From Acidimicrobiia bacterium (GTDB lineage: Bacteria > Actinomycetota > Acidimicrobiia > Spongiisociales > UBA5794): 64,000 bases of DNA. The DNA lies in assembly GCA_030066875.1 (NCBI GenBank), contig JASJAS010000002.1, forward strand, positions 212-64,211, read 5' to 3'. The position numbers and the translations under genes were made by a program. The notes under the pieces were generated by a model. It worked only from the letters and a program-made list of their open reading frames with translations. It searched no databases and was not told where the DNA came from. The first letter of the stretch is position 1. Each line of letters opens with the position of its first letter. Shown piece by piece: positions 32,620 through 42,110 of this stretch.

Positions 32620-33225
32620 ATGCCGCCACCATCCGAAAGTCGAATCCCCGGCCGTCCCAGTTCCGACGATGTACGGGAGATGGTGTCCCGAATCGTCGAC
32701 GGCGTTCTCGAAGATCCGCAAGAGGCACCCGCAGAGCAAGCCAGTCCTCCGCCGGCCGCCCGTGCTCAGACCGACGGCATCGCCATCGGGGCCGATCACG
32801 GAGGCTATCCGCTGAAAGAACGTCTGGTGTTCCGGCTTCGTGAGCAAGGTCAGAGCATCCTCGACTGCGGAACGGATTCGCCTGACGCAGTCGATTATCC
32901 GGACTACGCCCACGCGGTCGCCAGCGCAGTCGCCACGGGAAAGGCCAGATGGGGCATCATCGTTGACGGTGCGGGAATCGGGTCTTCAATGGTCGCCAAC
33001 AAGGTCCCCGGAGTACGGGCCGCACTTTGCTATGACCTGTCGAGCGCCCGCAACAGCAGAGAACACAACCACGCCAACGTATTGACACTGGGAGCCGGCC
33101 TGATCGGCGAGAATCTGGCATGGCAGATCGTCCAAGAGTGGCTCGCCACCGATTGGGGCGGGGACCGCCATGCACGTCGTGTGGGCAAGATCACCGAGAT
33201 CGAGCGGCGCTACTCGACAATGTAG
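32620..33225 (+). CDS. RpiB/LacAB-family sugar-phosphate isomerase with a 53-aa N-terminal encapsulation-peptide-like extension (BMC cargo).
   Basis: The core '[16 protein letters not shown]...[17 protein letters not shown]...REHNHANVL' aligns to RpiB. The extension '[17 protein letters not shown]' plus a Pro/Ala linker is absent from the housekeeping RpiB at 41658..42110. Confidence 0.85.
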
Positions 33226-33232
33226 GAGAGAA

Positions 33233-34066
33233 ATGGATCGGGACAAGTTAATCGAGGCGGTAACCCAGGAAGTGCTCACCGCGCTCACTATGCGTTACGA
33301 CGTGTGTGAGTCACCCGAGGCGGTGCGCAACGTCGTCGCCAACGGAGCCGATCGAGTCAGCTTTCACGGTGATGCGGCTGATGTGCCGATGGATCTGGCC
33401 CGCTATATCGATCACACCCTGCTCAAGCCTGAGGCGTCCGCCGAAGACATCGACGAGCTTTGTGCAGAAGCACGCGAGTACGAGTTTGCATCGGTGTGTA
33501 TCAACCCCACCTGGGTGAGGCGGGCCGCCACCAACCTGCGCGGATCGAACGTGGTCACCTGCACGGTGATCGGATTCCCGCTGGGGGCCAACACAACGGC
33601 CATCAAAGCGATGGAGGCACGCCGGGCGCTACGCGAGGGCGCACGCGAAATCGATATGGTTCTCAACGTGGGTGCACTCAAGTCGGGTGAGTATGAGCAG
33701 GTACGGGAGGACATCGCCCAGGTTTCCGAAGCTGCACACGAGGTGGGCGGACTGTGCAAGGTCATTCTCGAGACGGCCTTGCTGACCGACGAGGAAAAGG
33801 TCATCGCCTCTTCCCTCGCAAAGGAGGCAAAGGCCGACTTCGTCAAGACGTCGACGGGTTTCGGTTCCGGTGGAGCGACGGTGTACGACGTAGCGCTGAT
33901 GCGGGAGACGGTGGGGCCCGACATGGGCGTCAAGGCGTCGGGCGGAGTACGCACCCTGGAAGATGTGGAGGACATGATCGCCGCGGGAGCAAGTCGCATC
34001 GGGGCTTCGGCGGGTGTGCAGATCGTGAGCGGAGACCAAGGAGAGGCAAATGGCGACCGGTATTGA
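33233..34066 (+). CDS. deoC: Deoxyribose-phosphate aldolase with an N-terminal encapsulation-peptide-like helix (BMC cargo).
   Basis: ATG 33233 follows an AGGAGAG RBS. '[12 protein letters not shown]', Schiff-base Lys motif 'DFVKTSTGF' and 'VKASGGVRT'. N-terminal amphipathic '[15 protein letters not shown]'. Confidence 0.9.
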
Positions 34067-34685
34067 GCTGAGGTCATACACATTCCTCGACAGTCTCCAG
34101 CCCCAGTACGCCGCGTTCCTGGGCACGGTCGCCAAGGGGTTCTTGCCGCTCGCATACGACGCCTCGCTGTGGGTCGAAGTCGCTCCCGGTATCGAGATCA
34201 ATCGGCTGACGGACGTCGCCCTCAAAGCGACCAAGGTGTGGCCGGGAATGCAAATCATCGAGCGGTACTACGGAGTGCTCGAAGTGCATTCACCCGACCA
34301 AGCCGAGACGCGGGCCGCCGGGCAGGCAATCCTCGACGCCATCGGCTTGACCGAAGAAGACCGTCTCAAGCCGCGACTGCTCTCCAGCCAGATCATCCGC
34401 CGGATCGACGACCATCATGCCCAGTTGGTGAACCGCGATCGGCACGGTCACATGATCATCCCGGGACAAACACTCTATGTTCTCGAATGCGAACCGGCCG
34501 TGTACTCGGCGCTGGCAGCCAACGAGGCGGAAAAAGCCGCGGAGATCAGCATTCTGGAGGTACGGTCATTTGGCTCGATGGGTCGCATGTACCTTGCCGG
34601 GGAAGAGAGGGATATCGATGTCGGCTGGCGGGCAGCTGTAGCCGCGCTCGAGGGTGTGAGCGGGCGCGAGCCGACGAAGAAGTGA
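34050..34685 (+). CDS. Tandem BMC-domain shell protein (BMC-T, divergent).
   Basis: It has two ~95-aa halves, each with the BMC beta-alpha-beta pattern: '[24 protein letters not shown]...GVLEVH' and '[30 protein letters not shown]...[14 protein letters not shown]'. An AAGGAGAGG RBS precedes it, and it lies inside the shell operon. Confidence 0.7.
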
Positions 34686-34712: not shown

Positions 34713-35015
34713 ATGGCTGAAGCTCTTGGAATGATCGAAGCTCGGGGTTTTGCGGCAATGGTCGAGGCCTCGGATGCGATGGTCAAGGCAGCCAAGGTCG
34801 AATTGGTGAGCTACGAGAAGACCGGAGGCGGCTACGTGACGGCCATCGTCCGTGGTGATGTCGCCGCGGTGAAGGCCGCAGTTGATGCCGGCGTCCGCGG
34901 CGCAGAGAAGGTCGGCGAGGTCATCGCTACCCACGTCATCGCCCGTCCCCATCTCAACATCGATCTGGTGTTGCCGCTGGGTCGCAGCGAAGAGGCCGAG
35001 CGCGAACTCGGCTAG
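34713..35015 (+). CDS. BMC-H hexameric shell protein (PduA/EutM-like, Pfam00936).
   Basis: '[57 protein letters not shown]' is a canonical BMC-H sequence. Confidence 0.95.
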
Positions 35016-35059: not shown

Positions 35060-35347
35060 ATGCATCTGGGAAGGGTGGTCGGGACCCTCGTTGCGAGCCG
35101 CAAGGAGGAACTGCTCGAGGGCATGAAGTTCCTCGTCATTCGCCAACTCGGCGTCGACAACGACGAGACCGGTGGCTATGTGGTTGCGGTTGACGCAGTG
35201 GGTGCTGGGGTCGATGAGGTGGTCATGTACGCCCAAGGCAGCTCGGCGCGCCAGACCGTGCTCACGAGAGACAAGCCTTGTGACGCGGTGATCATGGCGA
35301 TCGTCGATACGTGGGAAGTAGACGGCGACGTGAAGTACCGGAAGTGA
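35060..35347 (+). CDS. BMC-P pentameric vertex protein (EutN/CcmL family).
   Basis: '[30 protein letters not shown]...[13 protein letters not shown]'. An AAGGAGG RBS precedes it. Confidence 0.9.
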
Positions 35348-35362
35348 GGCTCGGGACCGGCG

Positions 35363-36820
35363 ATGCTTAGCGAGCAGGATGTCAGGACGATCATCGAGAG
35401 GGTGAAAGGCCGCGTCGCCGCGGTCGAATCGTCCGGTCGCCCCGGTCCTGCGCTGGCAGCGAGTGACGACCTTGCGGCGTACGAGGCCCAGCTGGGAGAG
35501 GGCATCTATCCAACGATCGATAAGGCTGTAGCCGCGGCGCGCCGGGCGTTTGTTGAGTTCCGCGACATGGGTCTCGACGGGCGTCGCACCATTGTCGATG
35601 CGATGCGGGAGTCGATGCTCCGCGAAGGTGAGCGGCTTGCCTACATGGCCCGGGAGGAAACCGGCTTGGGTCGGGCCGACGACAAAACCATCAAGAACCG
35701 CATCGTGACGTTGGGCACACCCGGACCCGAGGACCTCGATCCCCATGCCGTCACCGGCGATGACGGGATGATGGTGACCGAGTGGGCTCCTTATGGCGTC
35801 ATCGGTTCGATCTCGCCCACCACCAACCCGACTTCCACCATCATCAACAACGCGATAGCCATGATTTCGGCCGGCAACGCAGTCGTCTTCAACGTGCACC
35901 CCAGCGCCAAGGCGGTCTCGGTCGAGAACATAAAGCTACTCAACCGCGCCATAGTGTCGGCGGGCGGTCCCACCGACCTCATTACTGCGATCCCGAACCC
36001 GACGCTGGAGAGTGCGCGCGAGGTCATGTACCACCCCGACGTCCGGGTCCTGCTGGTGACGGGCGGGCCCGGGGTGGTCAAGGAAGCGCTGAAGACCCAG
36101 AAGAAGTCAATCACCGCCGGTCCGGGCAACCCGCCCGCGGTCGTGGATCAGACGGCTGATGTGAGCAAGGCAGGCCGAGACATCGTCAACGGCGCCTCGT
36201 TCGACAACAACATCATCTGTGTAGACGAGAAGACAACCATCGTCGTCGACACGGTGGCCGACCGTCTCATCCAAGCCATGACGGCCGCGGGTGCGTACCG
36301 GCTCAAGGAACACGAGCTGAAACGACTGGAGCGGGTGATTTTCAAGGAACTCGGTCAGCCTGCGAAACCTGGTCTGATCAATCCGGAATGGATCGGCAAG
36401 GATGCATCAGCGATCTTGGGGGCGATCGGGGTCATGGTGGATCCGAGCATCAGGTTGCTGATTGCCGAGGTTCCGAGGGAGCACTCGCTTGTCTGGACCG
36501 AACAGATGATGCCGGTAATGCCGGTTGTCAGGGTCAAGGATGTCGATGTTGCCATCGATCTGGCCGTTCGCTCCGAGCACAAGTTCCGGCACACTGCGTC
36601 GATCCATTCCACGAACGTGGCTTCAATCACCAAGATGGCACGGGCCATGAACTGCAGCATCTTCGTGGCCAACGGTCCCAACTACGCCGGCCTCGGTGAG
36701 GGTGGAGAAGGCTTTACCTCGTTCTCGATTGCGTCTCCTACTGGAGAAGGGCTCACCCGGCCGCGCACCTTCTCCAGGGTGCGGCGGGTCACAGTTGTCG
36801 GAGCGCTGCGCTATGTCTGA
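35363..36820 (+). CDS. CoA-acylating aldehyde dehydrogenase (PduP/EutE-like) with an N-terminal encapsulation peptide.
   Basis: The catalytic region 'FDNNIICVDEK' matches the PduP/EutE 'FDNNxxCxxEK' motif. The N-terminus 'EQDVRTIIERVKGRV' is followed by the linker 'ESSGRPGPALAAS'. Confidence 0.9.
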   Translation: MLSEQDVRTIIERVKGRVAAVESSGRPGPALAASDDLAAYEAQLGEGIYPTIDKAVAAARRAFVEFRDMGLDGRRTIVDAMRESMLREGERLAYMAREETGLGRADDKTIKNRIVTLGTPGPEDLDPHAVTGDDGMMVTEWAPYGVIGSISPTTNPTSTIINNAIAMISAGNAVVFNVHPSAKAVSVENIKLLNRAIVSAGGPTDLITAIPNPTLESAREVMYHPDVRVLLVTGGPGVVKEALKTQKKSITAGPGNPPAVVDQTADVSKAGRDIVNGASFDNNIICVDEKTTIVVDTVADRLIQAMTAAGAYRLKEHELKRLERVIFKELGQPAKPGLINPEWIGKDASAILGAIGVMVDPSIRLLIAEVPREHSLVWTEQMMPVMPVVRVKDVDVAIDLAVRSEHKFRHTASIHSTNVASITKMARAMNCSIFVANGPNYAGLGEGGEGFTSFSIASPTGEGLTRPRTFSRVRRVTVVGALRYV

Positions 36821-37457
36821 CGAAGTGCTCACGAACGAAGTGCCCGGGGTGGATCCGGCGATAGCCATGATCGAGTTCTCTTCAATCGCGGTCGGGATCG
36901 TCGCCGGGGATGCCATGATCAAGGCGTCTCCGCTCGGATCGATCTACGCGGGCACGGTTCACCCCGGCAAGTATCTGGTTCTGGTCAGTGGGGACACCGC
37001 CAGCGTCGACGAGGCGTTCGACGTTGGCCTCTCCGTCGGGCGCGGAATGGTTCTCGACTCCGTCTTCCTTCCCGACATCCATCCCGCGGTGACGGGGGCA
37101 ATTGCGTCCGATGAGGAGGCCGCCTGGATCAGCGGGGACGCTCTCGGCATGGTCGAGACCGAGCACGTGGCAACCGTGATTCAGGCCGCCGACGCGGGGG
37201 TCAAGGCCGCCTTCGTCGAAGTCAGCGCGGTCCGTATGGCCGACGGTCTGGGTGGCAAGGGCTACGTGTTGTTCTCCGGAGAGGTTGCCGAAGTGGAGGC
37301 AGCCGTCGACGCTGCCGAGCAGTGGAGCGCGGAATCCGGCTTCGTACTGCAGGCCCACGTCATCGCCCAATTGCACGACGAGATGGCGTTCAATCTGCGT
37401 TCCGACCTGCGCTTCCGCAGCCGGCTGGCGTTGCGGCCCTTAGAGCGGGACGGTTGA
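36813..37457 (+). CDS. Tandem BMC-domain shell protein (BMC-T).
   Basis: ATG 36813 overlaps the AldDH stop (ATGTCTGA). It has two BMC domains: 'AIAMIEFSSIAVGIVAGDAMIKASP...KYLVLVSGDTASVDEA' and 'ALGMVETEHVATVIQAADAGVKAAFVEV...GYVLFSGEVAEVEAAVDAA'. Confidence 0.85.
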   Translation: MSDEVLTNEVPGVDPAIAMIEFSSIAVGIVAGDAMIKASPLGSIYAGTVHPGKYLVLVSGDTASVDEAFDVGLSVGRGMVLDSVFLPDIHPAVTGAIASDEEAAWISGDALGMVETEHVATVIQAADAGVKAAFVEVSAVRMADGLGGKGYVLFSGEVAEVEAAVDAAEQWSAESGFVLQAHVIAQLHDEMAFNLRSDLRFRSRLALRPLERDG

Positions 37458-37458
37458 C

Positions 37459-37731
37459 GTGCAGCTCGGGCGAGTCCGCGGAACGGTCGTAGCAACCATC
37501 AAGTCTGGAGGTCTCGAAGGAGTGCGCTTTCTGATTGTGCAGCCGCTCGACAAGCACCAGGAGCCGGTAGGCGATCCGCTGGTAGCGGCAGATGCCGTCC
37601 ACATGGCTGCGCCGGGAGAACTGGTGTACGTAGTCGGCTCGCGTGAGGCGGCGGAAGCGATGCCCGAGAGGTTCGTCCCGGTCGACCACGCAATCGTGGG
37701 AATCGTCGATCAGGTGGCGTTGTCACCATGA
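37459..37731 (+). CDS. BMC-P pentameric vertex protein (EutN/CcmL family), paralog 2.
   Basis: GTG start. 'MQLGRVRGTVVATIKSGGLEGVRFLIVQPLD...AADAVHMAAPGELV'. Confidence 0.85.
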   Translation: MQLGRVRGTVVATIKSGGLEGVRFLIVQPLDKHQEPVGDPLVAADAVHMAAPGELVYVVGSREAAEAMPERFVPVDHAIVGIVDQVALSP

Positions 37732-37997
37732 AGGTGGCCAGGGTTGCCGGGACGGTGGTTTCGACGATCAGCTTCCCATTCTTCGACGAGAAGCGGTTGC
37801 TGCTGTGTGATGTGCTCGACGCAAAGGGCGAGGTGCAGGGCTACACCATCGCCGTTGATGTCGTCGACGCCGGTGTTGGAGAAACCGTTCTGGTGTTGGA
37901 CGAGGGCAACTCATCGCGCCAGATATTCGGGCTGGAGACAGGTCCGATCAGGGCAACCGTCGTCGGAATCGTCGACGAGGTCGAGTTCGGAACCTAA
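37728..37997 (+). CDS. BMC-P pentameric vertex protein (EutN/CcmL family), paralog 3.
   Basis: ATGA coupling to the upstream gene. 'MKVARVAGTVVSTISFPFFDEKRLLLCDVLD...AVDVVDAGVGETVLV'. Confidence 0.85.
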   Translation: MKVARVAGTVVSTISFPFFDEKRLLLCDVLDAKGEVQGYTIAVDVVDAGVGETVLVLDEGNSSRQIFGLETGPIRATVVGIVDEVEFGT

Positions 37998-41657: not shown

Positions 41658-42110
41658 TTAGGAGCGGTTACGTTCCAACTCCAGCACCTTGTTGAGACGG
41701 CGTACGTATCGTTCCTTCGGAACGAATTGGGCGCCCAGGTAGGCCTGCACGATCTCCTCAGCTACGGCGGCGCCGGTTACACGTGCGGCCAGGGCCAGCA
41801 CGTTGACATCGTCGTGCTCCACCGCCTGATGGGCCGTATACGTGTCGCCGGCTTGAGCGCACCTGATGCCGTCGAGTTTGTTGGCCGCGATGGCGGCACC
41901 AGCCCCGGAACCGCACACGACGATCCCGCGGTCGGCGCGCCCCTGTATGACCGCGCGACCCACAGCCGCGGCGAAGTCCGGGTAGTCCACCCTTTCTGCG
42001 TCTGAGTCGGTTCCCAGGTCGAGGACCGAGTGGCCGGAGCCTGCTATCAGCTGCTTCAGCTCCTCTTTGAGCTCGTATCCGGCGTGGTCGGCACCGATGG
42101 CTATTCGCAT
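41658..42110 (-). CDS. rpiB: Ribose-5-phosphate isomerase B (housekeeping copy).
   Basis: 'MRIAIGADHAGYELK', catalytic-Cys segment 'GIVVCGSGAGAAIAANK' and 'VEHDDVNVL'. 150 aa with no extension. Confidence 0.9.
   Translation of the reverse strand: MRIAIGADHAGYELKEELKQLIAGSGHSVLDLGTDSDAERVDYPDFAAAVGRAVIQGRADRGIVVCGSGAGAAIAANKLDGIRCAQAGDTYTAHQAVEHDDVNVLALAARVTGAAVAEEIVQAYLGAQFVPKERYVRRLNKVLELERNRS

Follow-up and report, generated by a model that had tools for sequence, protein, structure and literature searches.

The RpiB-fold gene that opens the microcompartment operon in the analysed 64,000-nucleotide stretch of Acidimicrobiia bacterium DNA (the window) very probably encodes an ordinary member of the SPU RPI clade, that is, an encapsulated protein which is partnered with deoxyribose-5-phosphate aldolase (DERA) and is not the R5P isomerase of the cell. 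Judged from its relatives, its pocket (Asp66/Ala68/Ser72/Asn95 in E. coli numbering) appears to have been remodelled as a set and to be constrained, not decayed. A sequence-only reading of this DNA had put forward the replacement of the catalytic Cys by Asp as a new lead, with a carboxylate base or a sugar phosphate other than R5P as its interpretations; the replacement was printed in 2024 by Dwyer, Sutter & Kerfeld as a property of "all SPU RPIs", with His99 kept, and both interpretations are also found there (PMC11585597), making the window gene one more member of the clade. What appears to be new here, on comparison of the sequences, is the four-residue signature together with the constraint on the binding site, which go past the main text of that paper (PMC11585597).

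The microcompartment-targeted copy and its locus

The features discussed are collected in Table 1. The start codon of the RPI gene is supported by its homologues, which span 97-100% of its length from residue 1-2. In a phmmer search against the PDB, residues 54-199 aligned without gaps to the C. thermocellum RpiB 3HE8 (E 7.8e-44) and likewise to E. coli RpiB (1NN4/2VVR), RPI numbers being E. coli numbers plus 50. Asp116 falls on Cys65 of C. thermocellum and Cys66 of E. coli, and Ala118 on Thr67 and Thr68, while the GADHGG motif (Asp59/His60, E. coli Asp9/His10), the REHNHAN motif (His149/Asn150, E. coli His99/Asn100) and the RHARR motif of the phosphate site (Arg183/His184/Arg187, E. coli Arg133/His134/Arg137) are all kept. 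The Glu of GGSGNGE-type sequences aligns to Ile71 of C. thermocellum and Ile72 of E. coli, the column in which RPI has Ser122. The AlphaFold2 model of RPI (mean pLDDT 90.8) superimposed on 3HE8_A with an rmsd of 0.6 Å over 146 columns and a TM-score of 0.97 normalised to the target (Foldseek), and the structural alignment therefore moves no Cys or Glu into the site. The residue assignments of the earlier reading thus stand: Cys to Asp, with the GAC as codon 116, and Thr to Ala are borne out by the ungapped alignment and the superposition, the absence of the mycobacterial Glu by Ser122, and the retained Asp/His pair and ring-opening His by the RPI sequence, while the CGSG of the second rpiB was read directly from the reverse strand.

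Table 1. Features of the window, with positions counted from its first nucleotide
Feature	Position	Strand	Basis
SPU-microcompartment RPI gene, RpiB/LacAB fold, Asp-type, 201 aa	32620..33225	+	PF02502 residues 54-191, E 1.4e-51
N-terminal amphipathic helix, residues 15-28, presumed encapsulation peptide	32662..32703	+	AlphaFold2 block pLDDT about 92
RpiB-fold domain, residues 54-199	32779..33216	+	ungapped alignment to 3HE8/1NN4; Foldseek 0.6 Å to 3HE8_A
Asp116, codon GAC, column of E. coli Cys66 (catalytic base)	32965..32967	+	
Ala118, codon GCG, column of E. coli Thr68 (O1/O2 proton shuttle)	32971..32973	+	
Ser122, codon TCT, column shared by E. coli Ile72 and the M. tuberculosis-type catalytic Glu	32983..32985	+	
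Asn145, column of E. coli Leu95, clade-specific Asn	33052..33054	+	
His149-Asn150, E. coli His99/Asn100 (ring-opening His), kept	33064..33069	+	
DERA/DeoC, deoxyribose-5-phosphate aldolase with N-terminal extension	33233..34066	+	TIGR00126 deoC, E 1.3e-85, residues 76-286 of the long ORF
BMC-H shell protein	34713..35015	+	PF00936, E 8.2e-29
BMC-P (pentamer) 1	35060..35347	+	PF03319, E 4e-27
Aldehyde dehydrogenase (AldDh), metabolosome core	35363..36820	+	PF00171, E 1.1e-36
Tandem-domain BMC-T shell protein	36696..37457	+	PF00936, two stretches
BMC-P 2 (37459-37731) and BMC-P 3 (37728-37997)	37459..37997	+	PF03319, E 7.3e-25 and 4.3e-20
Conventional Cys-type RpiB (CGSG), no extension, candidate housekeeping R5P isomerase, 150 aa	41658..42110	-	PF02502, E 2.9e-50

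The N-terminal helix is followed by a linker of low confidence in the AlphaFold2 model (residues 29-53, pLDDT blocks 61-62), and this combination of helix and flexible linker is the architecture given for SPU RPIs (PMC11585597). Membership of the RpiB/LacA/LacB superfamily is clear from PF02502 (174.5 bits, cut-off 24.7) and TIGR00689 (164.6, cut-off 88.3), and the protein also passes the TIGR01120 rpiB equivalog model (148.6, cut-off 138.65). It nevertheless lacks the Cys in the E. coli 66 column (Asp116) and the Thr/Ser for O2 to O1 proton transfer in the 68 column (Ala118) that mark Cys-type RpiB (EC 5.3.1.6), although His99, Asp9/His10 and Arg133/His134/Arg137 of that class are present, and it also lacks the Glu of mycobacterial Glu-type RpiB (M. 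tuberculosis Glu75 in GGSGNGE, E. coli 72 column), scoring under the cut-off of TIGR02133 as well (127.5 vs 168.2). The combination that characterises the SPU RPIs of Dwyer et al. 2024 is present: Asp in the Cys66 column with His99 kept, and a gene that shares its locus with DERA, AldDh and BMC shell genes, a BMC-P triplet among them. LacA was considered as an identity and rejected, both on the scores (NF006380 94.7 vs 164, TIGR01118 79.1 vs 181.1) and on context, the neighbour of RPI being DERA with no LacB partner; LacA is similar in being an RpiB-fold subunit with an Asp reported in the catalytic-base region (PMC11585597), but it works only as a heteromer with the adjacently encoded, Cys-bearing LacB, whereas the RPI orthologue is a homotetramer.

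RPI is the first gene of a co-directional operon that continues with DERA, a protein of 211 aa that matches no Pfam family, BMC-H, BMC-P, AldDh, BMC-T and two further BMC-P genes, and the locus is that of an SPU (sugar-phosphate-utilising) microcompartment. The likely start of DERA is the ATG at 33233, 8 nt past the RPI stop codon and behind AGGAGAG, while its longest ORF runs from 33170; the start of the BMC-T ORF as listed overlaps the AldDh gene. The BMC-domain genes of the operon are the only ones in the 3.16-Mb, 81%-complete genome, and the closest loci are found in Acidimicrobiia MAGs with 66-77% identity to RPI. The neighbours give no clue to the substrate: upstream lie genes for components of an ABC-2 transporter, for MurJ and for a DUF3179 protein, and nucleoside or deoxyribose genes are absent. 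The protein studied experimentally, the SPU6 RPI of Chloroflexi bacterium GWB2_54_36 expressed in E. coli (PMC11585597), shares with the window RPI the Asp in the Cys66 column, the kept His99 and the N-terminal encapsulation helix with linker, and its gene likewise lies directly upstream of an extension-bearing DERA in a locus with AldDh, BMC-H, BMC-T and a BMC-P triplet. It differs in coming from another phylum and in having a linker of about 75 residues, against about 25 in the window RPI; complex formation and encapsulation are known from this orthologue.

The genome's only two PF02502 copies both lie in the window, and a genome search found no RpiA in the 81% covered by the assembly, which leaves the Cys-type copy as the sole candidate for a conventional R5P isomerase there. 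Its motif reads GIVVCGSGAGAAIAANK, it is 46% identical to the Asp-type copy, and it has orthologues in 27 of 30 relatives (61-87% identity), with about 9 kb between the Cys-type and Asp-type genes both here and in several genus-mates. The Cys-type lineage has conserved deviations of its own, with Arg97 to Val and Asn100 to Asp found order-wide and His134 to Tyr/Phe within the genus.

Signature and constraint in the Asp-type clade

The Asp is no chance substitution: among close homologues (65% identity or more), every one of the 119 whose motif could be read has DGAG. A wider search, through 1.84 billion cluster representatives, brought up 12,489 members of the family, the best 150 of which yielded 136 full-length domains (50%-identity representatives), and among these 136 the Cys66 column holds Asp in 118, Cys in 17 and Gly in one. 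The 118 Asp-clade representatives, drawn from a dozen or so phyla and with at most about 50% mutual identity, are counted below in E. coli numbering. Asp66 is invariant (118/118); position 68 is Ala in 104, with Val and Leu also listed but no Thr or Ser, against Thr/Ser in 17/17 Cys-type sequences; position 72 is Ser in 117, against Met/Ile in 17/17; and position 95 is Asn in 105, where the commonest Cys-type residues are Leu, Met and Ala (13/17). Asp9/His10 are kept in 110 of the 118 (five of the remainder are gaps), Asp42-Tyr43-Pro44 in 116-117 (Tyr43 in 116), His99 in 117 and Asn100 in 116, and at the phosphate site Arg133 is found in 116, His134 in 117 and Arg137 in 114. The Asp/His pair, His99/Asn100 and the phosphate site are thus 93-99% conserved, or 97-99% of the rows covering the column. 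An N-terminal extension is present in 82 of the Asp-type representatives, and 24 more have C-terminal fusions or extensions.

A maximum likelihood tree separates the two types by a branch supported at 97/83: the Asp-types group beyond it, and on the Cys-type side stand 18 rows, namely the E. coli sequence, the housekeeping copy of the window and 16 of the 17 Cys-type representatives. Two sequences break this pattern. One, on a long branch, is a two-domain fusion resembling LacA/LacB; the other is a Cys-type sequence nested in the Asp clade (P0270), which is probably chimeric. P0270 had the look of a reversion at first, but no conclusion is drawn from it, as its Cys-type CGSGTGM motif is joined to a C-terminal half resembling the Asp-type (NSREHN...), and recombination or a faulty assembly may have produced it.

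Three of the substituted positions (66, 68 and 72) are those at which RpiB enzymes move protons. In Cys-type enzymes Cys66 abstracts the C2 proton (Cys to Ser and Cys to Ala mutants are dead), Thr68 shuttles a proton between O2 and O1, the backbone amides of residues 67-71 stabilise the enediolate, His99 opens the furanose ring, and His10, Arg133 and Arg137 hold the phosphate (PMC4783025). The window RPI has the same fold as these enzymes (1NN4/2VVR and 3HE8; rmsd 0.6-1.5 Å, 44-50% identity) and shares Asp9/His10, Tyr43, His99/Asn100 and Arg133/His134/Arg137 with them, but differs in Cys66 to Asp, Thr68 to Ala, Ile72 to Ser and Leu95 to Asn and in its N-terminal targeting extension, and its orthologue is without R5P isomerase activity. 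The Glu-type enzyme of M. tuberculosis (Rv2465c, 1USL/2VVO) has also replaced the catalytic Cys and uses a carboxylate base, but there the Cys column holds Gly, the base Glu75 stands in the E. coli 72 column and Ser71 (E. coli Thr68) is kept, whereas the window RPI has its carboxylate in the Cys column, Ser in the Glu column and no Thr/Ser. From these alignments, the three proton-transfer positions of the two known RpiB mechanisms seem to have been re-tooled together, with the binding and ring-opening residues apparently under strong purifying selection, and the co-ordinated substitutions around a retained binding site therefore look unlike those of a decaying pseudoenzyme. They would suit either an enzyme acting on some other substrate or a scaffold that needs a bound ligand to assemble or to function.

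Association with shell genes, DERA and other isomerases

We fetched 80 loci (74 Asp-type and six Cys-type), a set from which the share of Asp-types in the whole RpiB family cannot be read, because one of the retrieval patterns contained the clade-specific Ser and biased it to Asp-types. DERA lies within 3 kb in 59 of the 74 Asp-type loci and in none of the six Cys-type loci, and shell genes are present in the available flank in 41/74 and 0/6, respectively. In the 40 loci with full flanks DERA adjacency is the tighter of the two (33 vs 27), and because of this and the frequent fusions the data point to RPI and DERA being a functional unit. The DGAG variant could be asked to be specific to microcompartment-bearing genomes, and this is largely what was found: among 20 genomes in which the Asp-type gene has no shell gene within 10 kb (mostly Acidobacteriota), 19 still carry BMC-domain (PF00936) genes elsewhere, the single miss being a 1.7-Mb MAG, while whole-genome searches of Cys-type controls found BMC-domain genes in 0/5. 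Five Asp-type loci without DERA or shell genes within 10 kb have no recurrent partner, their neighbours being unrelated (UvrA, an ECF sigma factor, a phosphoribosyltransferase, transglycosylases and a transposase).

Other isomerases accompany the Asp-type gene almost throughout. Among 19 Asp-type genomes, the three with a single PF02502 copy have RpiA, 14 further ones have a Cys- or Glu-type RpiB, and the other two have a second PF02502 copy with an untyped column. Two relatives without the Cys-type copy have RpiA, and the sole exception with neither is a genome from the window's genus which is 82% complete. The Asp-type variant is tied to microcompartment genomes and was not found as the housekeeping isomerase, and the concern that DGAG might be common among bona fide housekeeping enzymes can be set aside, as a conventional isomerase or another RpiB-family copy is found alongside it in all the genomes looked at but this one.

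These data bear on whether RPI could after all be a genuine R5P isomerase which uses Asp as a carboxylate base but needs particular conditions to be active, such as the shell interior, a different pH or a cofactor. The score over the TIGR01120 cut-off and the full retained set of R5P-binding residues would agree with such activity, and M. tuberculosis RpiB is a precedent for a carboxylate acting as base (PMC4783025, PMC11585597); both its Glu solution and the Asp of LacA have been discussed for SPU RPI (PMC11585597). We nevertheless regard it as very improbable: the purified Chloroflexi orthologue had negligible R5P to Ru5P activity, both alone and complexed with DERA (PMC11585597), which contradicts the carboxylate-base reading for that protein, the Thr/Ser68 shuttle kept in both Cys-type and Glu-type enzymes is lost, each genome but the 82%-complete one has a separate conventional isomerase or second RpiB-family copy, and R5P has no pathway link to DERA in the compartment.

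Possible roles of the Asp-type protein

The explanation that we consider very likely as a whole is that RPI is a cargo protein of the SPU microcompartment, targeted by its N-terminal encapsulation helix, and that the R5P isomerase role in the cell would be filled by the Cys-type copy 9 kb away. By analogy with the Chloroflexi orthologue, RPI would most likely bind DERA at about 1:1 inside the compartment and most likely have little or no R5P isomerase activity. It would still bind a phosphosugar, most plausibly a substrate or product of DERA, since the pocket appears remodelled as a set with its binding and ring-opening residues under purifying selection, and it may thus act for DERA as a partner that binds ligand, or as a non-canonical catalyst, and not as an inert, decaying scaffold. 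Against this stand the findings that no activity or ligand is known for any Asp-type member, that the published complex left the Km and Vmax of DERA unchanged with the authors favouring a packaging role for RPI while leaving other substrates open (PMC11585597), and that RPI is absent from SPU5 loci and often from SPU4 loci (PMC11585597) and therefore dispensable for some SPU compartments. The pocket could also be conserved for the stability of the fold or for the interfaces within the tetramer and with DERA, and not for ligand binding; in the Leishmania RpiB mutants D45N and E149A structure was lost along with activity (PMC4783025).

It is quite possible that RPI is purely a pseudoenzyme or scaffold, which lost catalysis with Cys66 and only tethers DERA into the core via its encapsulation peptide, similar to CcmM or the catalytically dead AldDh copies of other microcompartments, and a non-catalytic packaging or adaptor role, possibly ligand-dependent, is likewise a real possibility. 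The homotetrameric SPU RPI has a typical N-terminal encapsulation peptide, it co-purifies with DERA at about 1:1 as a stable complex with negligible R5P isomerase activity and no kinetic effect on DERA, and RPI-DERA fusions occur in SPU3 (PMC11585597), all of which a tether would explain, as it would the adjacency of RPI and DERA in 59/74 loci and the C-terminal fusions in 24/118 representatives. However, a scaffold would not require Asp66, Ser72, His99/Asn100, Asp9/His10 and Arg133/His134/Arg137 to stay invariant over some dozen phyla, and the replaced residues went to one specific set without drift.

Tentatively, RPI could be an active isomerase, or a ring-opening or enolising enzyme, which uses the Asp66/Ser72 pair on a substrate other than R5P, for instance deoxyribose-5-P (ring opening or anomer handling for DERA), G3P/DHAP or tetrose phosphates. 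The base (Cys to Asp), the shuttle (Thr to Ala) and the alternative-base position (Ile/Met to Ser) changed together while the binding residues were all kept, and phosphosugars of four to six carbons are known substrates in the RpiB family (NCBIfam DerI and LacAB models; Axen 2014); the different-substrate interpretation of the earlier reading would fit this strong conservation of the pocket. Loss of the O2-contacting Thr might suit a 2-deoxy sugar, but since deoxyribose-5-P has no 2-OH, an aldose-ketose isomerisation of it is impossible. TPI lies within 10 kb in only 2/74 Asp-type loci, a count that would leave room for an isomerase acting on trioses but is uninformative unless set against RPI-less SPU loci, and SPU1 and SPU4 loci have been reported with both TPI and RPI. 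The unchanged DERA kinetics in the complex argue against substrate delivery.

The boldest form, that RPI is a working enzyme or ligand-gated DERA partner rebuilt around Asp66/Ser72 with Ala68 and Asn95 and acting on a phosphosugar other than R5P, which may be deoxyribose-5-P (ring opening or enolisation) or triose or tetrose phosphates made in the compartment, we consider rather unlikely. If true, it would add a third solution to the Cys66 and Glu75 types of the RpiB family, and the accepted reaction scheme of one very widespread type of microcompartment would change, the SPU compartments, with >280 loci in 26 phyla (PMC8217296), ranking with the most widespread organelles of bacteria. Taken together, the signature and the constraint sharpen the choice between enzyme and scaffold for the second SPU signature protein. 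It also has a practical side: because they pass the equivalog model, Asp-type RPIs are named 'ribose 5-phosphate isomerase B' by annotation pipelines, and the window RPI, with its score above the TIGR01120 cut-off, will therefore be misnamed by automatic annotation, so that in such genomes the Cys-type or RpiA copy is the one to take when the pentose-phosphate pathway is reconstructed.

Substitutions in the Cys-type RpiB of the order

The only candidate for a conventional ribose-5-phosphate isomerase in the genome is the Cys-type RpiB (see table below), despite the substitutions found in it. The Cys-type lineage of the order (the copy in the window and loci L115-L140) reads VEHDD where REHN(D/N) is near-universal, and this 'housekeeping' lineage carries Arg97→Val and Asn100→Asp (E. 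coli RpiB numbering), while within the genus of the window His134 is also replaced by Tyr or Phe. In the family set, the three positions are kept in 16-17 of the 17 Cys-type and 116-117 of the 118 Asp-type representatives.

Features of the window, with coordinates and strand
Feature	Position	Strand	Location
Asp-type RPI	32620-33225	+	
211-aa ORF	34050-34685	+	between DERA and BMC-H
Cys-type RpiB	41658-42110	-	

Proteins combining Asp-type and Cys-type features

Two RpiB-family proteins combine features of both types. In P0220 (325 aa) an Asp-type domain 1, which has the motif GIVLDAYGIG and lacks Asp9/His10-type residues, is joined to a Cys-type domain 2, and this protein looks like a LacA-LacB-like fusion with no relation to the SPU clade. 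The Cys-type P0270 (149 aa) was placed within the Asp clade (support 100/85; compared with P0264 and loci L092 and L108); its CGSGTGM motif is shared with the housekeeping copies of the Pyrinomonadaceae, its C-terminal half is Asp-type-like (a stretch of 21 residues), and it may be a recombinant of paralogues or an assembly chimera.

Neighbouring genes and annotation of the Asp-type RPI

The 211-aa ORF gave no Pfam match, and tblastn showed it to be conserved in most Asp-type loci with shell genes; the sequence-only reading had separately described it as a putative divergent BMC-T.

In the Acidobacteriota (Bryobacteraceae, Pyrinomonadaceae and Blastocatellia; loci L034-L077, e.g. L040, L044, L050, L051, L057, L063 and L072) the Asp-type RPI and DERA genes form a two-gene module distant from the shell genes, which are dispersed across several contigs. 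The RPIs of this phylum have much longer N-terminal extensions, of up to 130-155 residues, counted as open frame 5' of the domain, an upper bound.

The Asp-type protein scores 148.6 with the NCBIfam rpiB 'equivalog' TIGR01120, above the curated cut-off of 138.65, and its homologues are named 'ribose 5-phosphate isomerase B' in public sources. Since this activity was negligible in published work on an SPU RPI orthologue, the naming of the Asp-type homologues is a systematic mis-annotation.
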